Assembly (NCBI GenBank): GCA_964016885.1
Contig: OZ024754.1
Location: 39,184,001 to 39,248,000 of the forward strand
Direction of reading: 5' to 3'
Origin: Eledone cirrhosa
Taxonomy: Eukaryota
DNA length: 64,000 nucleotides
In this document: piece by piece, positions 8,048 to 55,068 of the stretch
Position numbering within the stretch: position 1 is the first letter of the stretch
How the letters are laid out: the number at the start of each line of letters is the position of its first letter
The notes under the pieces: model-generated
Told to the model about the DNA's origin: nothing
Database searches by the model: none
What the model saw: the letters and a program-made list of their open reading frames with translations, nothing else
Position numbers and translations under genes: made by a program

Positions 8048-8539
8048 GTCATCATTTCACATATATTTTCCATATTTTCATGATCTGAGGCTAAGACCAA
8101 TCAAGTGGCCTTGCCTTGCTCATATGTTCCAATTTTAGCAAGGTTTCTACAGCTGTATACCCCTTCCCAATGCCAACCACTTTATGATGTGGACTGTGAG
8201 TACTTTATCATTGCTCCAGCACTACCCCCTTACTAGGTGGACTGTTACCTTTTTCGCATCACATCAGCACTACCCCCATACAGGGTAGAGTGGGTGCATT
8301 TTGTCATGGAACCAGTACTACCACCTTATCGATCACAAACGATCGATTGTAATTGAACCACCGCAGACTCAGAAAACTCATCAGGGGTATAGGGGTATAG
8401 TCTCTAGCATTCTAATGGAAATATAGCCGACCGGAGCTCAACCATCGGGGTCCTGAATCTTTTCATATTACCCACTCTACTACCCCAAGTATCAAGTACT
8501 CTGGTGGGTTATGGTCTACTTGGTTTTTTACCCACCCTA

Positions 8540-8598
<59 letters not shown>

Positions 8599-10109: not shown

Positions 10110-11649
10110 AAGACAGATAAAGAGAAAGTTGTTGTTCCTATTTATTTTGAGTCACCAGTATATCTGTCATGGTAATTATATATATTTAGACATATTGTCA
10201 CCCCCGCCTCACTCTCCGTTCTATCCCAAATATCTACCCTGGGGTTTTTATTGTCTATAAACATTCTGGCAAATTTTTGTAGCTATAGTCATCATTGTCA
10301 TTGGTGTCACCTTCATCATCATTTTTACCTGCCACTATCCCTTCCATACTGGCATGGGCTGGAAGAGACCTTTTGAGGCTGCGTTATGGCCAGATTCCTT
10401 TCTGATGACAACACTTTTAGTCACCTCCTACAGCACACAAGGGATATGGTGTATGTATCCTAAAAACTGGGATATATATACATGAATATTAAAACTATTT
10501 TTGCCAGTTAACATTTTCATTTTATTTGTATTACTTGTGTGTCTCTCAGTTTAGAATAGATACACCATATCCCTGCATGTTGTAGGAGGCGACGAAAAGA
10601 GTTGACACCAGGAAGGGAATCAGACTATAAAACAACACAACCCTTTTGATAATTACGAACCCTGTGGTGTGCGTGTGTGTCGTCCCCCCCCCCCCACGCA
10701 CAAGGCTAACCCCTATTTTAGCAGGGAAAATGGTCTTTAAATACTTGTTGATGAATGAGTTACACATGAACCTCTCGCTCTACATGTTGTTAAAGTTCAA
10801 CAGGTCTTCTCTCTCTACATGTAGTTAGACAGGTCCTCTCTCTCTCTACATGTAAAAGTTTAACAAGTCCTCTCTCCATACATGTTGTAGTTAGACAGGT
10901 CCTCTCTACATGTTGTAAAAGTTTAACAAGTCCTCTCCCTCTACATGTTGTAGTTAGACAGGTCCTCTCCAACATGGCCTCTCTCTCCACATGTAAAAGT
11001 TAGACCAGTGTGTATCAGCGCACCAGTGTACCAGTGTGTATTCTTGCAAAGTTTAATTAAAATTTCTCTCTCACTACACCAGCTTTCACCACCTCTGCCC
11101 ATGTCTTTCCTGATCTTCCTTTTATGCAACTTCCTTCCATTTGGTACTCCTTGCACTTCTTTACCCAACTATCCTTCATAAACCCTACATGTCTGTACCA
11201 GTGCAGTCTTCTCTCATATTTTAATGAATCAAATTTCTTGCTTCACTACTTTCAGTATGTTTGTATTTCAACTGTAATTCTTTAGTTTCAATGTGCCTTA
11301 CTTATCTTTAAATGTTAATCACAATAGCAGAGCAGATAGTAACTTTTCCTATGTATCCTATTTCTATATCTTTCCTACTTGTACTTTGCTTACTGATTAC
11401 CTTATCAACTAAGTGTTTAGTAAAATGAAAAAAAATAAAAATAAAAAATGCAATATAGTATTTGTTCTAGCTCTTTACATTTTGAGTTCAAATTCTGTCA
11501 AGGTCAGTATTGTCTTTCATCCTGCTGGAGTTGATAAAAGTACCTGTCTAGAACTGGGGTCAATAGACTTTCCCCTCACCCTAGAAAATTGTTGGCTTTC
11601 TTCCTAAATTTGAAACCATTATAATATTACATGGTTTCTCATTGCTGCT

Positions 11650-13757
11650 TGGTTAAGTCCTAGAAATACCTGTGTTATGGTGGTTAAGTCCCTAGAAACA
11701 CCTGTGTTATGGTGGTTAAGTCCCTAGAAATACCTGTGTTATGGTGGTTAAGTCCTAGAAATACCTGTGTTATGGTGGTTAAGTCCTAGAAATACCTGTG
11801 TTATGGTGGTTAAGTCCCTAGAAATACCTGTTATGGTGGTTAAGTCCTAGAAATACCTGTGTTATGGTGGTTAAGTCCCTAGAAACACCTGTGTTATGGT
11901 GGTTAAGTCCCTAGAAATACCTGTGTTATGGTGGTTAAGTCCTAGAAATACCTGTGTTATGGTGGTTAAGTCCTAGAAATACCTGTGTTATGGTGGTTAA
12001 GTCCTAGAAATACCTGTTATGGTGGTTAAGTCCCTAGAAATACCTGTTATGGTGGTTAAGTCCCTAGAAATACCTGTGTTATGGTGGTTAAGTCCCTAGA
12101 AATACCTGTGTTATGGTGGTTAAGTCCTAGAAATACCTGTGTTATGGTGGTTAAGTCCCTAGAAATACCTGTTATGGTGGTTAAGTCCTAGAAATACCTG
12201 TGTTATGGTGGTTAAGTCCCTAGAAATACCTGTGTTATGGTGGTTAAGTCCTAGAAATACCTGTTATGGTGGTTAAGTCCCTAGAAATACCTGTGTTATG
12301 GTGGTTAAGTCAATAGAAATACCTGTGTTATGGTGGTTAAGTCAATAGAAACACCTGTGTTATGGTGGTTAAGTCCCTAGAAATACCTGTGTTATGGTGG
12401 TTAAGTCCCTAGAAATACCTGTGTTATGGTGGTTAAGTCCCTAGAAATACCTGTGTTATGGTGGTTAAGTCCTAGAAATACCTGTTATGGTGGTTAAGTC
12501 CCTAGAAATGCCTGTGTTATGGTGGTTAAGTCCCTAGAAACACCTGTGTTATGGTGGTTAAGTCCTAGAAATACCTGTGTTATGGTGGTTAAGTCCCTAG
12601 AAATACCTGTGTTATGGTGGTTAAGTCCTAGAAATACCTGTGTTATGGTGGTTAAGTCCCTAGAAATACCTGTGTTATGGTGGTTAAGTCCCTAGAAATA
12701 CCTGTGTTATGGTGGTTAAGTCCTAAAAATACCTGTGTTATGGTGGTTAAGTCCTAGAAATACCTGTGTTATGGTGGTTAAGTCCCTAGAAATACCTGTG
12801 TTATGGTGGTTAAGTCCCTAGAAATACCTGTGTTATGGTGGTTAAGTCCCTAGAAATACCTGTGTTATGGTGGTTAAGTCCCTAGAAATACCTGTGTTAT
12901 GGTGGTTAAGTCCTAAAAATACCTGTGTTATGGTGGTTAAGTCCCTAGAAATACCTGTGTTATGGTGGTTAAGTCCCTAGAAATACCTGTGTTATGGTGG
13001 TTAAGTCCCTAGAAATACCTGTGTTATGGTGGTTAAGTCCCTAGAAATACCTGTGTTATGGTGGTTAAGTCCCTAGAAATACCTGTGTTATGGTGGTTAA
13101 GTCCTAGAAATACCTGTGTTATGGTGGTTAAGTCCTAGAAATACCTGTGTTATGGTGGTATAGTCCTAGAAATACCTGTGTTATGGTGGTATAGTCTTAG
13201 AAATACCTGTGTTATGGTGGTATAGTCCTAGAAACACCTGTGTTATGGTGGTTAAGTCCTAGAAACACCTGTGTTATGGTGGTTAAGTCCCTAGAAACAC
13301 CTGTGTTATGGTGGTATAGTCCTAGAAACACCTGTGTTATGGTGGTATAGTCCTAGAAACACCTGTGTTATGGTGGTATAGTCCTAGAAACACCTGTGTT
13401 ATGGTGGTTAAGTCCTAGAAACACCTGTGTTATGGTGGTTAAGTCCCTAGAAACACCTGTGTTATGGTGGTATAGTCCTAGAAACACCTGTGTTATGGTG
13501 GTTAAGTCCTAGAAACACCTGTGTTATGGTGGTATAGTCCTAGAAATACCTGTGTTATGGTGGTATAGTCCTAGAAATACCTGTGTTATGGTGGTATAGT
13601 CCTAGAAACACTGTTATGGTGGTTAAGTCCTAGAAACACCTGTGTTATGGTTGTATAGTCTTAGAAACACTTGTGCTATGGTGGTTAAGTCCTAGAAATA
13701 CCTGTGTTATGGTGGTGTAGTTTTAGAAATACCTGTGTTATGGTGGTTTAGTCCAAG
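11650..13757. repeat. 29-32-bp minisatellite, roughly 65 copies
   Basis: Unit TGTGTTATGGTGGTTAAGTCC(C)TAGAAATACC. Confidence 0.95.
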
Positions 13758-15416
13758 ACACACCTTCAAAGTAATGCCCCAGTATGGCCAGAGTCTAATG
13801 AGTAAAATCAATAAAATAATATATATTTTCAGTATGTTTTTCACATGAATATTATCTAGAACAAGAATGCAAAGATTTGTGGTTGGGTATATTTTTTTTC
13901 AGATCTGATTTTAATTATAGAGGCTGCACAAAGCCAATTAATTATACACTTTAAATTAATTTATAATGGTAAAAAAGCTATGTATTTTTAGAATGAACCA
14001 TAAAAAACATATCTACGAGTCTGGATGTTTTGTTGGAAATCTTTTCCAAGCCACCACCGAGACAAAACTGGTTTGATTTAGTCGAGCAAGAAAAATGTTC
14101 ACTTTAGCTATATTTGTACACAACAATAAATAATACAAGTTAGAGAGACAGAGAGAGAGACATAGTATTTTTTTTAAGAGCTTATATTTGAAATCAATAT
14201 AGAGGGACCAAGAAATCTATGTTTGCCAAGTAACCATTGATTAACAAATCGGGTTATCTGGAGAACATAACAATAAATAGCGTGTTGTTTGTAATTATAC
14301 AGTTCTGAAAGAAAGGAAACAAAAAATCCTTCTTCTCAGATGTGACAATTAGTTGTGATAATGTGACCATTATTATTGCATATACTGGAAAGTGATTAAT
14401 GTTAGGAAGGGCATCCAATCATATCAACCCCAGTACTTATTTTTTTCATGTACTGGTACATATTTTATCGATTTCTTTTTGTCAAGCTGCACACGCACAC
14501 ACAAGAATGTGTTTAAAATAGCGAATAAGGAAAATGAATAGGACAGCAAGGGCCTATGCCATGCAGACAAGTTAGGTCAATTGACCGTGTCCTGCTTACA
14601 CAGAACTGTTTCTGGCATGGTTTCTACGACTGGATGCTCTTCCTAACGCCAACCACATTTACAGTGTAGTCTGGCCGCTTTCTGTCATGTCACCAACATG
14701 ACCCCTTTACAGTGTGGTCTGGGCGCTTTCTGTCATGGTACCAACATGACCACTTTATAGTGTGGTCTGGGCGCTTTCTGTCATGGCACCAACATGACCA
14801 CTTCACAGTGTGGGTTGGATGCTTTTTGTCATGACACCTACAGAACCAACAAACAGTGTGGATTGGGCATGTTTTGTTATGTCACCAACATGACTACTTT
14901 ACAGTGTGGACTGAGCGTTTTTTGATATGTCATCAATACAACTACTTTACAGTGTAGACTGGGCGTTTTTTGTCATGTCACCAACATGACTATTTTACAG
15001 TGTGATCTGGGCCTATTAAATACAATCTAGTGTGGAAGAAAAGGTCAGTTGAGACTAAAAAATAATTATAAATTTAGGCACAAGGCCAGCAATTTTGGTG
15101 CAGCGGGCGAGGGGTTGTCTATTATATCGACCCAGTATTTGAATGGTTCTTTATCTTATCCCCCCCCCCCCACCTGAATGAATGAAAAGCAAATATGACC
15201 TTGGTCAGATTTAAACTCGGTTCAAACAAAACAATGAGCAGTGCATTGACATTGTTTATCTATTGTAGCAATAGTAATAATGGCTAGCTTTGTTTTAGGC
15301 ACAGTAGTAGATGATCAAAGGCCAAGAGGCCTCCATATGGCTGCACCAGCCCATCCCACCCTTCCACTTCTCACAAATATGCAGATAAGAGAACAGCTTT
15401 GATAGTTTCAGTTTAA

Positions 15417-17150: not shown

Positions 17151-17567
17151 ATGCATGGCCCTCACAAGCCATCAACACGTAGGGGATATAACTGATTTTT
17201 TTTTGTTGTTGTTTGTGTGTAAAGAAATGTTTTTACACACAAGCGACAACAAAAAAAATCAGTTGTATCCCTTACTTTAGCAAGGACAGAAGTGACCCAA
17301 ACTATGCAATCAAAAATCAGCAGACAGGAGTTTTAGCAAAAACAATTTAAACTAATAAGAAATGTTTTGAAGATCCAGAACAGAGAAAGCAAGCTTTACT
17401 AACATAAATTTTTTTATACCTGTTATAAAGATCCTTTATATATATATATATATACCAGGTGTGCTTTCAAACTTTTTTTTTATCATTTTCCTTATATAAC
17501 ATGATCTGTATAGATCGCTTTCTAAATGTCCACACTTTTTTTCACTACATATATATATATGTATATG

Positions 17568-18921: not shown

Positions 18922-20109
18922 ACTTGCACACACGGTCTCAGACACACTCGCATATACACACACACACTTGCATATACAAACACACACACCACTTCTCTCT
19001 CTCCCCATATCCCTCAATATTGCTGTCCCCCATCTCTCTCTTTATCCCTCACTATTGCTGCCCCCCCCTCTCTCTCTCCTTATTCCTCACTATTGCTGCC
19101 CCCCTCTCTCTCCTTATTCCTCACTATTGCTGTCCCTATCTCCCTCTCATTAACAGGTCTCTACATAAATATTTTGCTACCCTCCTCTCTTTCCCTACTT
19201 TTTCTTCATCCATCTTTCTTTATCTCTGCCCCTCTCCTTCTATCTACAGCCCCCCCCCCGTTCCCTTCCGATTTCTCCCCCCCCCCTCTCTCCCTGGTCT
19301 CCTTCTCTCTCCCTCCTCCTTTCTCCTCTCCGTATGCTCTTCACCTGATACTAAGCTACTTCTCAATATCCCAATTATTTGTTGTCCAGAAGTTCGTTAG
19401 ATATTAACGAACTGTTTTGAAACATATCCGTTATAATACATCTGCTGGCCATTAGGCCACATTTATTGCCTTGGCTTCTATCAACTGTGGCCTTGCTAAT
19501 TATATATGATTTATGGAGGGCTTATAAATAATACATGTTCTGTCCATGATGTATTTACAGCTAATATGATTTAGGTAGGGCTTACAGGTGTGTGTGATAT
19601 ATTTAGAGGCAACACGATTCATGTAGGTCTTATAGGCATATATGTGTGTGTGTGTGTGTGTGTGTGTCATCTAGAAACGATCGTAAAGCAGTGAAGTATA
19701 TCTCTAATGACTTTATATATATCTATATATAGATATATATATATGAAAAGATTCAGGACCCCCGATGGCTGAGCTCTGGCTGTTTCGAAAGCTAAATCCG
19801 AAACTTTTCATACTACCTACTCTACTACCCGAAGTATCGAGTACTCTGGTGGATTATGGTCTAGCTGGTTTTTACCACACCCTATCTGATATATATATCA
19901 GAGGTAGACCACGAAAAACATGGGTGAAGGTGGTGAGAGCAGACCTCAGATCGCTGAAGCTCACAGTGGAGATGACGAAGGACCGTGATAAGTGGAGAGA
20001 TGCTGTGCTGAATAGGACCCGTCCCACCCTTGCAAGCAGGGAAAAGCGGACGTAAAATGATGATGATATATATATATAGTGGTCATTTTGGTGCCATGAC
20101 AAAAAGCTC

Positions 20110-22574: not shown

Positions 22575-23709
22575 TCTCCCTTATCTAATCTACAAACCTC
22601 CAACGCAATCTTCCATTCTCTTCTGTTATATGTGTCATTTTATATAAGATACTTTACTTTACATGGAAAGGTTAACACAGTAAATAGAAATACATTTACA
22701 TCTTGCAACTGTCATTTCAAATCTAAAATATATATACACACGCACGCGCACACACACACACATATATATATACAAACTTAGTATGTGTGTGGGTATATAT
22801 ACATATATAGGTTTATACACATACAAGTCTATTTTATATATATACATGCAGACATATATACAAACTTAGTATGTGTGTGGGTATATATACATATATAGGT
22901 TTATACACATACAAGTCTATTTTATATATATATACACGCAGATATATATACAAGCCTAGTGTGTGTGTGTGTGGGTATATATACATATATATAGGTTTAT
23001 ACACACCCTTGCAAGCAGGGAAAAGCGGACGTAAAATGATGATAAGCGTATTATATCATCATCACCGTTTTAGGTCCGTTCTTCCACGCTAGCATGGGTT
23101 AGACGGGTTGTCCTGTTGTGGGCAGTGTCCGGTCGGCTGACCATGCCTTGCTCATACAGGAACTGATTTGGCTTGATTTCTACAGCTGGATGCCCTTCCT
23201 AACACCAACCTCATTTACAGTGAGTGCTGGGTGTTTTTTTGTGGCGCCTACACGATATATATATATATATCACCGTCCAAACCCATGCAAGCATGGAAGA
23301 TGGACGTTAAACGATGATGATGATGATGATACATACTCACACACACATATATTATGAGTCAGGACCCTGACGGTTGAGCTCTTCCCGTTTCAACAGCTAA
23401 CAAACCTATTATATACACACACACATATATGTATGTATATATATATATATATGCATGTTAAAAATGCTATCATTTGAAATGGAATATATATACATTTGCA
23501 TATGTATATATATATTACATAGCAGACATACTTATATATGTAAAATATACCCTGGCACCAAACAATATCAACTAGTTATCTGCTGCCATTTGTTAAATGT
23601 TAGATATTTAACCCTTCTAATATTTACTACATATGCCAACTGCCAAACGTTTTATCTCAATAAGCCAGTATAAGAGAGAGACAGAGATTTTGATACTTCT
23701 CCCTCCCCG

Positions 23710-23962: not shown

Positions 23963-24251
23963 ATATAGTCTATATATATATATATGTGTGTGTGTGTGTA
24001 TAGTCTATATATATATATATATGTGTGTGTGTGTGCGTGTTTATATAGTCCATATATATATGTGTGTGTGTGTGTATATAGTCTATATATATATGTGTGT
24101 GTGTGTGTATAGACCAAATATGTGTATATAGTCCAAATATATATGTATGTGTATATAGTCTATATATATATGTGTGTGTGTGTGTATATGGTCTAAATAC
24201 ACACACACACACACAATATGAATGGCAATCAAAGAGTGTTTAAAACATTTG

Positions 24252-24303
24252 ATCACTTGCGATCGTTTCATCCTAGCACAAGGCTGGAATCATCAGAGTT
24301 GAT
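24252..24303 (-). ncRNA. Degenerate hammerhead motif (U16.1 replaced by C)
   Basis: Minus strand reads ATCAACT-CTGATGA-TTCCAGC(CTTGT)GCTAGGAT-GAAA-CGATCG-CA-AGTGAT. Confidence 0.6.
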
Positions 24304-24673: not shown

Positions 24674-24863
24674 GGAATGAGTAGGACCCCGACGGCTGAG
24701 CTCAAGCCGTTTCGACGGCTAATTCTGGACTAAAAGTCCTACTCGTCGGGGTCCTACTCGTTCCTATTTCCCACTCTACTACCCTAAGTATTGAGTACTT
24801 GGGTGCATTATGGTCCATCTGGTTCCTTACCACATTTTCTTTGTTATATATATATATATATAT

Positions 24864-27275: not shown

Positions 27276-28250
27276 AAGTGAACACCTTAACCATACAGCT
27301 ATACCTGTACCTATGTTGTGAAGTGAACACCTTAACTACATAGCCATACCAACACCTATGTTGTGAAGTGAACACCTTAACCACACAACCATACCTGTAC
27401 CTATGTTGTGAAGTGAACACCTTAACCACACAGTCATGCCTGTACCTATGTTGTGAAGTGAACACCTTAACCACACAGCCATGCCTGTACCTATGTTGTG
27501 AAGTGAACACCTTAACTACATAGCCATACCAACACCTATGTTGTGAAGTGAACACCTTAACCACACAACCATACCTGTACCTATGTTGTGAAGTGAACAC
27601 CTTAACTACATAGCCATACCAACACCTATGTTGTGAAGTGAACACCTTAACCACACAACCATACCTGTACCTATGTTGTGAAGTGAACACCTTAACCACA
27701 CAGCCATACTACACCTATGTTGTGAAGTGAACACCTTAACCACACAGTCATGCCTGTACCTATGTTGTGAAGTGAACACCTTAACCACACAGCCATGCCT
27801 GTACCTATGTTGTGAAGTGAACACCTTAACCACACAGCCATACTACACCTATGTTGTCAAGTGAACACCTTAACCACACAGCCATGCCTGTACCTATGTT
27901 GTCAAGTGAACACCTTAACCACACAGCCATATCTACACCTATGTTGTGAAATGAACACCTTAACCACACAGCCATTCCTACACCTATGTTGTGAAGTGAA
28001 CACCTTAACCACACAGCCATACCTACACCTATGTTGTGAAGTGAACACCTTAACCACACAGCCATACCTACACCTATGTTGTGAAGTGAACACCTTAACC
28101 ACACAGCCATATCTACACCTATGTTGTCAAGTGAACACCTTAACCACACAGCCATACCTACACCTATGTTGTGAAGTGAACACCTTAACCACACAGCCAT
28201 ACCTGTACCTATGTTGTGAAGTGAACACCTTAACCACACAGCCATACTAC
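27276..28250 (-). repeat. 45-bp minisatellite (~21 copies) resembling a SINE 5' head
   Basis: Unit AAGTGAACACCTTAACCACACAGCCATACCTGTACCTATGTTGTG. Confidence 0.92.
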
Positions 28251-28508
28251 ACCGATGTTATACACTGAACTCCTTAACCATACTTTGGGCATAAAATAAA
28301 ATATATTAAAACTGTTATCTCTATCTTTTAGTTTATAATTATTAATGAAATAGAATTAAGTATGTACATGTTTATTCAATAAAGGAAGACCATAACTATC
28401 AAGGTTCTATATTTAGAATTTCACTTTGTATTTGGATTGTGTTTCCTCTCAAGTATTATATTTTTGTGCTACAACATTTGCAAAGTATTGACCTATATAT
28501 ATTCTGAT

Positions 28509-31865: not shown

Positions 31866-31902
<37 letters not shown>

Positions 31903-31906
<4 letters not shown>

Positions 31907-32096
31907 GATTCAGGACCGCCAATGGGTGAGCTCCGGCTGTTTCAACAGCTAGATCCAGCTGGACCTAGCTGTCGAAATGTCCAGAGCTCAGCCGTCGGGG
32001 TCCTGAATCTTTTCATATTACCCACTCTACTACCCCAAGTATCGAGTACTCTGGTGGGTTATGGTCTACCTGGTATTTTACCACACCCTTTCTGAT
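31903..32096 (+). mobile_element. (TA)n-associated element with a 5' hairpin and ~80-bp tail
   Basis: AAAAGATTCAGGAC...GTCCTGAATCTTTT, then TACCCACTCTACTACCCCAAGTATCGAGTACTC... Copies at ~8425-8545, 19744-19890, 23355-23405, 24673-24845 and 41999-42167 (-). Confidence 0.8.
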
Positions 32097-34421: not shown

Positions 34422-34645
34422 TATTAAAATAACAGATTAAAGTTTAAGCAAAGAATCGCTGCTTTCACCTTTAACGGGATCTTCTGAAATTAACAAAGTC
34501 AATCTGTAAACGCAGAAGTGGATATTTCAAAAAATGTTGAAATATCCACTTCTGCGTTTACAGATTGATTTTGTTAGTTTCAGAAGATCCCGTTAAAGGT
34601 GAAAGCAGCGATTCTTTGCTTAAACTTTAATCTGTTATTTTAATA
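34422..34645. repeat. Near-perfect fold-back palindrome (109-bp arms, 6-nt loop)
   Basis: Arms 34422-34530 and 34537-34645 with two mismatches. A partial copy lies at ~26258-26321. Confidence 0.92.
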
Positions 34646-41453: not shown

Positions 41454-41533
<80 letters not shown>

Positions 41534-41565
41534 TGTGTGTGTGTGTGTTAAGTATTTCAATACAA

Positions 41566-41682
41566 AGGTCTGACGACATGGTGTGTTTGCTTACAGTGTA
41601 CCTTCGGTTTATGATAATATTTTTATATTATTCAAATAGCGAGGTATAGGTAACCCATACACTATAGAAACAATTGTTACCT
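41566..41682 (+). ncRNA. Type I hammerhead ribozyme motif with extended (~90 nt) stem II
   Basis: AGGT-CTGACGA-c-ATGGTGTGT...ATACACTAT-a-GAAAC-AATT-GTT-ACCT. Stem I AGGT/ACCT; palindrome ACAATTGT; the insert folds as a long hairpin. Confidence 0.7.
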
Positions 41683-41726
41683 AATAAATTCTGTATACCC
41701 GCATTTCCATTTCATAAACTTCTTCT

Positions 41727-41770
<44 letters not shown>

Positions 41771-41861
41771 TAAGTATTTCCATAGAAAAGGTAAAGGAAA
41801 GAAGCGTGCTCAATGTATTGTACAGAGCTATTTAATTACATAATAAACAACAGAATATAAT

Positions 41862-41931
41862 TATTCCATTACTGAAGGTTTCGAGAAACTAGATGATTCT
41901 TACAGAAACGTCTAGCTCGGTCGTCAGACAA

Positions 41932-41935
<4 letters not shown>
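41862..41935 (-). ncRNA. Degenerate hammerhead motif
   Basis: Minus strand reads TGTTTTGT-CTGACGA-CCGAGCTAGA..TCTAGTTTCTC-GAAAC-CTTCA-GTA-ATGGAATA. Stem I arms resemble those of the 42244 motif but are G-U rich. Confidence 0.5.
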
Positions 41936-41994
<59 letters not shown>

Positions 41995-42161
41995 TCATCA
42001 TCAGAAAGGGTGTGGTAAAATACCAGGTGGACCATAACCCACCAGAGTACTCGATACTTGGGGTAGTAGAGTGGGTAATATGAAAAGATTCAGGACTCCG
42101 ACGGCTGAGATGGATCTAGCTGTCGAAACGGCCAGAGGTCAGCCGTCAAGGTCCTGAATCT

Positions 42162-42203
<42 letters not shown>

Positions 42204-42243
42204 GATATTAAATAAATGGAAACTATATTTATAAAACCATATT

Positions 42244-42309
42244 TATTTCATTATATATATTTCAGGGATATCATATTAACAATATGTTATGCCTTCTTCA
42301 GACAAAATA
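42244..42309 (-). ncRNA. Type I hammerhead ribozyme motif
   Basis: Minus strand reads TATTTTGT-CTGAAGA-AGGCATAACATATT(GTT)AATATGATATCCCT-GAAA-TATATA-TA-ATGAAATA. Stem I 8 bp with 2 G-U; stem II 12 of 14 paired; palindromic stem III. Confidence 0.75.
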
Positions 42310-42388
42310 CAATATAGACAGTTTTATAGATAAATAGATTTGACATGCCGTTCAACATCGACTTGTATTTGAAAAAGTTGATTTGGCA

Positions 42389-42429
<41 letters not shown>

Positions 42430-42502: not shown

Positions 42503-42657
42503 GATTTTGTTCCCCTCTATCAAAGCTGGGAAAGTTTCTACACTAGAAACCTGTATCGAAGAATAAGTGATTGTTGGAATCGTCCAGTTTGTACGGCTCC
42601 AGGAGCAGAAATAGATGTCTTAGAACGGGTATCTCCAGACTTTGGTTGGAACTGGAA
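42503..42657 (+). CDS. SPTLC2: SPTLC2-like coding exon (155 bp, phase 0/2)
   Basis: tttttAG acceptor; encodes [51 protein letters not shown]; GTAAGC donor. FYTRNLY..I.D.WNRP is a conserved LCB2 motif. Confidence 0.95.
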
Positions 42658-45011: not shown

Positions 45012-46496
45012 GTCCTTCCTATCACCAACACTAGGACAGTTGACATGTCTTTGACTCAACTGAAGAGTCCTTCCTATCACCAACACTAGGACAGTTGACA
45101 TGTCTTTGACTCAACTGAAGAGTCCTTCCTATCACCAACACTAGGGCAGTTGTCATGTCTTTGACACAACTGAAGAGTCCTTCCTATCACCAACACTAGG
45201 ACAGTTGACATGTCTTTGACTCAACTGAAGGGTCCTTCCTATCACCAACACTAGGGCAGTTGACATGTCTTTGACTCAACTGAAGAGTCCTTCCTATCAC
45301 CAACACTAGGACAGTTGACATGTCTTTGACTCAACTGAAGGGTCCTTCCTATCACCAACACTAGGGCAGTTGACATGTCTTTGACTCAACTGAAGAGTCC
45401 TTCCTATCACCAACACTAGGGCAGTTGTCATGTCTTTGACTCAACTGAAGAGTCCTTCCTATCACCAAAACTAGGACAGTTGACATGTCTTTGACTCAAC
45501 TGAAGGGTCCTTCCTATCACCAACACTAGGACAGTTGACATGTCTTTGACTCAACTGAAGAGTCCTTCCTATCACCAACACTAGGACAGTTAACATGTCT
45601 TTGACTCAACTGAAGGGTCCTTCCTATCACCAACACTAGGGCAGTTGACATGTCTTTGACTCAACTGAAGAGTCCTTCCTATCACCAACACTAGGGCAGT
45701 TGACATGTCTTTGACACAACTGAAGAGTCCTTCCTATCACCAACACTAGGGCAGTTGACATGTCTTTGACACAACTGAAGGGTCCTTTCTATCACCAACA
45801 CTAGGGCAGTTGACATGCCTTTGACTCAACTGAAGGGTCCTTTCTATCACCAACACTAGGACAGTTGACATGTCTTTGACTCAATTGAAGAGTCCTTCCT
45901 ATCACCAACACTAGGGCAGTTGACATGTCTTTGACTCAACTGAAGAGTCCTTCCTATCACCAACACTAGGACAGTTGACATGTCTTTGACTCAACTGAAG
46001 AGTCCTTCCTATCACCAACACTAGGACAGTTGACATGTCTTTGACTCAACTGAAGAGTCCTTCCTATCACCAACACTAGGACAGTTGACATGTCTTTGAC
46101 TCAACTGAAGAGTCCTTCCTATCACCAACACTAGGGCAGTTGACATGTCTTTGACTCAACTGAAAAGTCCTTCCTATCACCAACACTAGGACAGTTGACA
46201 TGTCTTTGACTCAACTGAAGAGTCCTTCCTATCACCAACACTAGGGCAGTTGACATGTCTTTGACACAACTGAAGAGTCCTTCCTATCACCAACACTAGG
46301 ACAGTTGACATGTCTTTGACTCAACTGAAGAGTCCTTCCTATCACCAACACTAGGGCAGTTGACATGTCTTTGACACAACTGAAGAGTCCTTCCTATCAC
46401 CAACACTAGGGCAGTTGACATGTCTTTGACACAACTGAAGGGTCCTTTCTATCACCAACACTAGGGCAGTTGACATGTCTTTGACTCGAAGGGTCC
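45012..46496. repeat. 54/55-bp minisatellite (~27 copies)
   Basis: Unit GTCCTTCCTATCACCAACACTAGG(A/GG)CAGTTGACATGTCTTTGACTCAACTGAAGA. Confidence 0.95.
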
Positions 46497-46809: not shown

Positions 46810-47954
46810 CTGTACTATGTACAGGTGATATGGTTCACTACTGTACTATGTACAGGTGATATGGTTCACTACTGTACTATGTACAGGTGATATGGTTCAC
46901 TACTGTACTATGTACAGGTGATATGGTTCACTACTGTACTATGTACAGGTTATATGGTTCACTACTGTACTATGTACAGGTGATATGGTCCACTACTGTC
47001 CTATGTACAGGTGATATGGTCCACTACTGTCCTATGTACAGGTGATATGGTCCACTACTGTCCTATGTACAGGTGATATGGTCCACTACTGTCCTATGTA
47101 CAGGTTATATGGTTCACTACTGTACTATGTACAGGTGATATGGTCCACTACTGTCCTATGTACAGGTGATATGGTTCACTACTGTACTATGTACAGGTGA
47201 TATGGTCCACTACTGTCCTATGTACAGGTGATATGGTCCACTACTGTACTATGTACAGGTGATATGGTTCACTACTGTACTATGTACAGGTGATATGGTC
47301 CACTACTGTACTATGTACAGGTGATATGGTCCACTACTGTACTATGTACAGGTGATATGGTCCACTACTGTACTATGTACAGGTGATATGGTTCACTACT
47401 GTACTATGTACAGGTGATATGGTTCACTACTGTACTATGTACAGGTGATATGGTTCACTACTGTCCTATGTACAGGTGATATGGTTCACTACTGTACTAT
47501 GTACAGGTGATATGGTTCACTACTGTACTATGTACAGGTGATATGGTCCACTACTGTCCTATGTACAGGTGATATGGTTCACTACTGTCCTATGTACAGG
47601 TGATATGGTTCACTACTGTCCTATGTACAGGTGATATGGTTCACTACTGTACTATGTACAGGTGATATGGTTCACTACTGTACTATGTACAGGTGATATG
47701 GTTCACTACTGTCCTATGTACAGGTGATATGGTTCACTACTGTCCTATGTACAGGTGATATGGTTCACTACTGTACTATGTACAGGTGATATGGTTCACT
47801 ACTGTACTATGTACAGGTGATATGGTTCACTACTGTACTATGTACAGGTGATATGGTTCACTACTGTACTATGTACAGGTGATATGGTCCACTACTGTAC
47901 TATGTACAGGTGATATGGTCCACTACTGTACTATGTACAGGTGATATGGTTCAC
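46810..47954. repeat. 31-bp minisatellite (~37 copies)
   Basis: Unit CTGTACTATGTACAGGTGATATGGTTCACTA. Confidence 0.95.
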
Positions 47955-48442
47955 TTCACAGTTGCTACTGTTTGGCTGGTAAAACAGAAACATTCAACTG
48001 ATATGTCAATACCACAACTAACACTACCACTACTACAACAACCAACACTACCATTACTGCAACCACCAACACCACTACAACTACAACCACCAACACTACA
48101 ACCACCACCACAACCTCCAACATCAGCACCATTGCCCACCCCACCCTCTAACTTATTTCAACACTATCCAAATCTAGTGCAGGAGACTCTACACTGTTGC
48201 TTACCCTGTTAAAAATAACAGCTAAATCTTCCTCAAATCACAGCCTACTAGCTTTAAAAAATAGAAAAAGAAAGGCCCCATTACCTAACACAGTGATAGT
48301 TACACTATCTAAATATAAGATGAACTGCCACAATCCACCTAGGTGTCTAGGTACCCAGTCATGTTATCTGCAATACACTACTAACCTATCCTATGTTAGC
48401 GGGGTCACACCAAATGGTTTGTGGTATTTGTTTTGACATTTT

Positions 48443-54997: not shown

Positions 54998-55068
54998 TAT
55001 TTTATCTGATGAGAACGCAAATATCATCCCATGATGATATTTGTTTTTGAAATGCGCATAATAAAATA
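54998..55068 (+). ncRNA. Type I hammerhead ribozyme motif (near-intact)
   Basis: Stem I TATTTTAT/ATAAAATA; CTGATGA at 55006-12; 16-position stem II with one mismatch and a CCAT loop; GAAA at 55049-52; palindromic stem III ATGCGCAT; AUA cleavage triplet. Confidence 0.85.

Follow-up and report, generated by a model that had tools for sequence, protein, structure and literature searches.

The closest described relatives of the DNA analyzed here are Penelope-like elements (PLEs) of the Hydra clade. Their diagnosis, as given in the part of PMC8557442 used here, comprises an RWK motif, a DKG motif changed to DKT, a CxCX5C linker, and CxxC and CxH motifs around a conserved E and N, without CCHH; many of their hammerhead motifs have a mismatch at the base of stem II, often a U at the cut site, and a stem III of 3 to 4 bp. 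The supplement of the same paper, in the portion considered, gives Hydra-1_Obim of Octopus bimaculoides a preference for (TA)n and a hammerhead cut after U, and the corresponding main text reports a small number of extra families and no mass expansion (PMC8557442). A second described class is that of the metazoan non-LTR retrozymes, non-coding units of 170 to 400 nt that carry a type I hammerhead and are tied to PLEs (relevant parts of PMC7229834 and bioRxiv 10.64898/2026.07.22.740005). A ribozyme with a short palindromic stem III requires pairing between two copies within the same tandem transcript for its activity, and single minimal hammerhead motifs did not cleave (PMC4209133). Counts of about 4,000 and 9,000 hammerheads per genome, obtained with a descriptor other than ours, have been called remarkable (PMC4209133), and the sections of PMC7229834 used here give, again with other descriptors, over 6,000 and about 5,000 per genome, as well as 126,247 motifs for the axolotl. 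For O. vulgaris, 31 recently active Penelope-like families have been described, in a part of PMC13282606 that mentions no hammerhead; our literature search, with subscription papers mostly outside its scope, found no published hammerhead count for a cephalopod genome.

Here we describe four short segments (cassettes 1 to 4) that lie within 900 bp of each other in Eledone cirrhosa, in a stretch of 64,000 nucleotides that we call the window (GCA_964016885.1, contig OZ024754.1, positions 39,184,001 to 39,248,000, forward strand). Our main conclusion, drawn from sequence comparison and held with high confidence, is that they are very probably the 5'-truncated 3' ends of four separate Hydra-type Penelope-like families, likely brought together by successive insertions into (TA)n, and that their hammerheads are likely inert leftovers. 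The families are new and the Hydra clade is already published; the cluster itself is thus explained, since its kind is known, and the interest that remains lies in how large the radiation is, in a family that is apparently intact, in a U3-A8 variant of the ribozyme, and in the idea of palindrome-restricted dimers. As far as the part of PMC8557442 used here describes the Hydra clade, the elements of E. cirrhosa share with it a single ORF, a C-terminal endonuclease, a hammerhead in the pLTR, insertion into (TA)n, tandem and inverted 5'-truncated copies and a tail at one end, and cassette 1 shares two oddities of the published hammerheads, the U at the cut site and the mismatch at the base of stem II. 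They differ from what is described there in that at least four families share 900 bp, and 0.8 Mb of sampled genome yields about 22 hammerhead families, whereas one octopus family is listed; in that a 3.0-kb unit with clear pLTR tandems is present, whereas Hydra-1_Obim is listed without a pLTR; in a stem II of up to 90 nt; and in the U3-A8 core of one family, which is found in none of the Hydra motifs listed (PMC8557442). Tails are also longer, 85 to 110 nt against the 30 to 40 bp described.

The first-pass annotation of this DNA had noted short segments alternating with pure (TA)n tracts, and indeed five pure tracts set off four segments of about 170 to 200 bp each. From left to right, a (TA)36 tract (41458..41529) forms the left border and is followed by a flank duplicate, (GT)8-TAAGTATTTC (41533..41558, +), which copies the 3' end of cassette 2 and has its second copy at 41761-41780. 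Cassette 1 (41559..41730, +), the 3' end (pLTR) of a young Hydra-type family, then abuts a (TA)16 tract (41729..41760); cassette 2 (41761..41936, -), from an older family, abuts a (TA)28 tract (41937..41992). Cassette 3 (42000..42167) consists of two back-to-back 5'-truncated arms, a long one with a tail (42000-42109, -) and a short one (42111-42167, +), and is followed by a (TA)18 tract (42166..42202). Cassette 4 (42203..42389, -), the 3' end of another young family, is followed by the right border, also (TA)18 (42390..42425). The four cassettes have no sequence match to one another, and the three hammerhead cassettes that the annotation had taken for one diverse family belong to three separate families. 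Its fourth piece, described as a hairpin-tail element, is a two-armed hairpin as stated and is in addition hammerhead-derived, with only the 3' half of the ribozyme.

Downstream of the cluster lies an internal coding exon (42503..42655, +), the product of which matches residues 110-159 of PDB 7k0i_B (E 1.1e-18), identifying a homologue of serine palmitoyltransferase 2 (SPTLC2/LCB2); a homologue search with this 51-aa exon, a query short enough to limit the search, gave no match. We infer that the cluster sits in the intron preceding this exon, its right edge being about 80 nt upstream of the splice acceptor, with cassette 1 in sense orientation relative to the host gene and cassettes 2 and 4 in antisense.

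A type I hammerhead descriptor found three motifs in the window, at 41566-41682 (+), 42244-42309 (-) and 54998-55068 (+), compared with a mean of 0.05 (maximum 1) in 100 local dinucleotide shuffles. Cassettes 1 and 4 satisfy the type I core CUGANGA/GAAA/UH with three helices: stem III of cassette 1 is ACAATTGT, with a predicted cut after GUU at 41678, and that of cassette 4 is ATATATAT, with a predicted AUA site. The third strict motif, with stem III ATGCGCAT, represents a fifth family that was not traced to an ORF. Three hammerhead folds had been claimed between the (TA)n tracts; two of them are those of cassettes 1 and 4, and that of cassette 2 (41862-41935, -, within a decayed hammerhead at about 41858-41936) has a full core, yet is rejected by the descriptor, as a C.A mismatch interrupts stem III and the closing pair of stem II is C.C. 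The stem III pair lost in this copy is retained in 33 of the 43 aligned copies of its family. The window thus holds three strict motifs, two decayed ones and several half motifs, so that the earlier figure of 6 to 8 stands if decayed and half motifs are included, and falls to three for strict motifs. Among the stem III palindromes quoted in the annotation, ACGATCG(C) belongs to the decayed motif near 24269 (-), where U16.1 is replaced by C. This motif, whose stem III is CGATCG, lies at about 24200-24300; the same CGATCG family is also represented at 19674 (+), by a solitary 3' half that follows a (TG)n run.

That AT-rich DNA produces such folds by chance could be argued from the monomer folding energies of the three motifs, which are not below those of shuffles (z -0.8 to -1.3), and from an Rfam scan of the window, where the best 150 of 237 matches included no hammerhead and only microsatellite-driven miRNA matches; both results are, however, what is expected of motifs with short stems. 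The shuffle controls refute this reading, in the window and beyond it. Eighty 10-kb stretches, taken at fixed spacing from the 19 large contigs only (0.8 Mb in total), contain 73 strict motifs, spread over 27 of the stretches, whereas 12 shuffles gave 0.08, and in 55 of the 73 the stem III insert is perfectly palindromic, a feature that the descriptor did not require in full. Moreover, position 7 is free in the family of cassette 3 whereas U3 and A8 are constant, and its stem II exchanges A-U for G-C and A-U for U-A. We consider the probability of a chance origin to be next to nil.

Family 1, to which cassette 1 belongs, is apparently intact. A genome search with cassette 1 gave 1,117 candidates (here and below, candidate counts are not copy numbers), with 43 matches at 99-100% identity; since the 0.8-Mb sample contains no match, the family should number low thousands at most. 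At one locus (L242) the order is (TA)n, pLTR, an ORF of 760 aa, pLTR and (TA)n, with a unit of 3,017 bp, and three other loci (L241, L243, L244) carry further tandem or inverted copies. Of 31 distances measured from the ORF stop to the hammerhead core, 20 are 414 bp, and the cassette recurs just before the ORF start. With the C-terminal 260 aa, the endonuclease half, as query, all 147 scored matches had 93-100% identity and several sit in open frames of 760-793 aa; the family is therefore young and may be active. In 30 loci chosen by protein, pLTR ends meet (TA)n in 28 of 28 cases, 13 directly and 15 after a 110-nt tail, for a background of 0.10. Contigs from two sequencing runs of unrecorded kind span the L242 element; they have no bearing on RNA ends, strand or level. 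Several near-identical 3,017-bp tandem arrays with 778-aa open frames, in which the DKT motif reads GKT, occur within 0.45 Mb (G000:C4:204.13-204.57 Mb; L241 and L244); they may have arisen by segmental duplication or mark a source locus.

The AT-rich cassette 4 gave 16 candidates and 23 matches at 85-100% identity, and is identical over 188 of 188 bases to a copy on another chromosome. At two loci (L006, L002) DNA runs unbroken from the endonuclease end to cassette 4, about 1.3 kb downstream, and at a third (L079) cassette 4 with its tail stands directly ahead of the ORF start; the 5' region of the next unit begins with this tail. In all six two-armed insertions of this family with both ends read, exactly one arm is tailed.

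For cassette 2, the search gave 2,013 candidates, the best other copy having 96% identity. At L169 it lies immediately 5' of a decayed Hydra-type ORF, and in 30 loci chosen by the end of that ORF, with flanks of 1.5 kb only, cassette-2 sequence occurs in four at 0.8-1.3 kb downstream, in the same orientation, and in four more upstream and inverted; the ORF links of both cassettes 2 and 3 come from few, decayed loci. Alignment of the family (52 loci, of which 8 without usable match and 2 with internal deletions were left out) gave weak covariation, with a score reached by 24 of 500 shuffles and one clear U-A/C-G pair that is unpaired in 10 rows. Core change is 6.6%, compared with 2.7-8.5% in the flanks, and all 11 core bases are kept in 24 of 43 copies. 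With a core that is preserved no better than the flanking sequence, and weak covariation, the family points to neutral decay of copies after insertion. Stem sequences that change while pairing is kept, as claimed earlier, do occur from one family or subfamily to another, with little sign of them inside a single family.

Cassette 3 gave 3,450 candidates, with a best identity of 92%. It retains GAAA (42125-42128), stem III and GUC. A canonical C3-G8 core upstream of its stem was sought and gave no pattern matches; the core proved to be U3-A8. Longer copies read UUGANAA, a long stem II, GAAA, a stem III of 5-6 bp with a palindromic loop, GUC and stem I. A 19-base pattern for this upstream core, the 5' half, has 296 exact matches, against none for the control, and 27 of 30 such matches run on into the 3' half. 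The complete motif is present in 24 distinct copies (15 of these rows having been chosen by one 5' pattern), with all four bases at position 7 and constant U3 and A8; between subfamilies, stem II pairs change from A-U (14 copies) to G-C (6) and from A-U (14) to U-A (7). Given its longer stem III with a palindromic loop, this variant might cut as a monomer. A U3-A8 core is also known from Schistosoma PLEs, with about 1,300 hits (PMC4209133). Hydra-type endonuclease sequence lies upstream in 2 of 30 family-3 loci, and four loci have a common untranslated region over 500-850 bp. Five further fragments of the family, most of them two-armed, are found in the window (8437-8545, 19743-19890, 23356-23399, 24679-24834 and 31900-32096).

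Longer copies of each of the four families continue in the 5' direction, via an untranslated region of 0.4-1.4 kb, into an ORF of RT plus GIY-YIG type, which bears out both the linkage to Penelope ORFs and the option of Penelope pLTR remnants proposed in the annotation. The attribution of these ORFs to Hydra is based on their motifs, compared with Hydra-1_Obim by eye. Families 1 and 4 have RIRWKA/RIRWRA, ADKT/SDKT and YRDD, and the family-2 ORF start at L169, read by eye, encodes MRWKA. The linker and endonuclease motifs are CNCTKPGTC, CKLC and CNH in one ORF (P0001), and CNCRDRSKC, CDLC and CRH in another (L082); CCHH is absent, and the GIY-YIG core lacks the CxxC that a Neptune-type ORF has there. 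A profile match from YRDD through the endonuclease links the Hydra-type ORFs to this Neptune-type ORF, Pfam-confirmed as RT/GIY-YIG (probability 95%, E 3e-8). Among six ORF pieces and the exon, Pfam matched the Neptune-type ORF only and none of the five Hydra-type pieces, and a PDB profile search with the Hydra-type ORFs gave no match. The unit of family 1 is 3,017 bp long and the 3' UTRs are longer in families 2 and 4, Hydra elements being generally under 3 kb. General PLE traits are present: 5' truncation, partial tandems, an inverted 5'-truncated copy and a tail at one end. Element ends are fixed, either short or with 85-110 nt of extra tail, and both forms abut (TA)n.

The identification of these ORFs as RT plus endonuclease draws, beyond the motifs and the profile match, on 206 full-length relatives of the Hydra ORF and on its Atlas neighbours, in some clusters of which 26-50% of the members have GIY-YIG. 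Most of these full-length relatives are on metagenome contigs of 2-3 kb, and the label of some neighbour clusters is bacterial; animal DNA in marine samples is the probable source, and so the distribution of Hydra elements seems wider than the published list indicates. The Neptune-type Penelope ORF itself (559 aa, Pfam RVT_1 and GIY-YIG; L080:6044-7720, +) is nested among Hydra-type fragments, and Neptune-type matches make up 0.4% of the 0.8-Mb sample.

Because longer copies lead into coding ORFs, the cassettes are better described as truncated retrotransposon ends than as tiny self-standing elements or retrozymes, the other option of the annotation; they belong to separate coding families of about 3 kb. 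On the competing view, each cassette would be one monomer of a non-LTR retrozyme or of a SINE-like non-autonomous element that has a short RNA of its own, perhaps circular, and relies on the Penelope enzyme for mobilisation in trans. Retrozyme-like arrays do exist in this genome: four sampled stretches hold head-to-tail arrays with one hammerhead per unit, of 310 bp (L250), 311 bp (L316), 556 bp (L282) and 482 bp (L318), in which neighbouring units are 98.6-100% identical. They belong, however, to other hammerhead families than the four cassettes, for none of which a short head-to-tail array was seen. The cassette 3 tail, extrapolated to about 139,000 copies (37 in 0.8 Mb) that are mostly short two-armed pieces, and the decayed state of the ORF-bearing copies of families 2 and 3 would also suit such a view, but the 5' ends are ragged, longer copies extend into UTR and ORF, and cassette 3 copies mostly lack the 5' half of their own ribozyme. 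We rate it as unlikely. Unlike the non-LTR retrozymes, as characterized in the sections of PMC7229834 used here, the four cassettes are not tandem monomers and are truncated ends of coding elements.

As ends of Hydra-type families, the cassettes would have formed as follows. The element endonuclease would nick (TA)n, and the RT would copy from the RNA 3' end by target-primed reverse transcription, mostly halting after less than 200 nt. Since (TA)n is left on both sides of an insertion, the target would be renewed and stacks would form. In tandem element transcripts the hammerheads are predicted to cut as dimers, which would release RNA that is unit-length or circularisable. On either side of cassette 1 there is a copy of (TA)n-(GT)n-TAAGTATTTC, the 3' end proper of cassette 2; this duplicate is best understood as a target-site duplication from the insertion of cassette 1, which would therefore be later than cassette 2, an order that agrees with their divergence.

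The position of the cluster edge so close to the splice acceptor, and the sense orientation of cassette 1 with its complete core and stems, raise the question of whether selection has preserved the cluster for a regulatory role in the SPTLC2 intron, by cleavage or splicing control of the pre-mRNA. Cassettes 1 and 4 are nevertheless 99-100% identical to distant copies, and thus recent; cassette 2 is damaged, cassette 3 halved, and cassette 1 has no partner of its own family in the window. At least three hammerhead-family fragments within 900 bp were moreover found in 13 of the 80 sampled stretches (two arms, and array units, being counted separately). We judge such a regulatory role to be highly improbable. 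The same count led us to reject the notion that the cluster is exceptional: it is ordinary for this genome. More speculatively, only copies with the same palindrome would pair and cut, transcripts of active families would cut their own sense intronic remnants in trans, SPTLC2 pre-mRNA would be transposon-sensitive, and the densest hammerhead load yet described (50-90 per Mb) would stem from a live Hydra radiation; we find this scenario quite unlikely, and the idea of the palindrome as a family barcode is weakened since several families have ATATATAT in common.

At the scale of the genome (assembly of 3.0 Gb), the 73 strict motifs, which represent C3-G8 cores as the descriptor omits U3-A8, fall into 22 families at 80% identity and reduce to 39 after collapsing arrays. 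Extrapolation gives 273,000 motifs (bootstrap 161,000-401,000) for the former count or 146,000 (94,000-210,000) for the latter, which suggests about 150,000 to 270,000 genome-wide and agrees with the very large number foreseen in the annotation. The enrichment next to (TA)n that it had proposed was also found: a tract lies within 200 nt on the 3' side of 27 of the 39 independent motifs and on the 5' side of 7, for a background of 0.195 overall and 0.31 in hit-bearing stretches, two array families having a (TA)n tract inside the unit. Cassettes 1 to 4 have 0, 5, 37 and 11 matches, respectively, in the 0.8 Mb (at least 50 bp and at least 80% identity, related families included). Far from being single-copy, a condition that the annotation had named as refuting its view, every cassette is multi-copy. 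Hydra-type ORF matches make up at least 1.5% of the sample; as only 4 of the 39 motifs have such an ORF nearby, most of the 22 families are not traced, and as four stretches hold arrays, the genome total mixes truncated ends with retrozyme-like arrays.

These hammerheads resemble those of PMC4209133 in being of type I, with a palindromic stem III, in having many families per genome and mostly solo truncated copies, and in the occurrence of opposite-strand pairs 100-700 bp apart; they differ in number, 150,000-270,000 being estimated here against about 4,000 and 9,000, with different descriptors. Such a number in 3 Gb matches or exceeds the 126,247 motifs of the axolotl, for which the descriptor also differed. 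The axolotl genome is about ten times larger. These figures suggest that much of the unclassified short repeat in such genomes may be truncated Hydra ends. The intact 760-aa ORFs in perfect tandems offer a construct with which to study what the hammerhead does during Penelope-like retrotransposition and how (TA)n is targeted.

A few other features of the repeats were noted. A further retrozyme-like array, with one hammerhead in each unit of 467 bp, is present at L280, and some arrays have arms in both orientations. The window contains homogeneous minisatellites with units of 31, 45, 55 and 31 bp (91-97% matches) at 11650-13765, 27276-28280, 45012-46487 and 46810-47955, respectively. Near-perfect long inverted repeats lie at 34438-34630, 17174-17278 and 10392-10621, and are miRNA-like in Rfam, below threshold. 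The first of them is flanked by TA tracts and is likely another two-armed element end; similar sequence flanks two loci elsewhere (L003 and L028).
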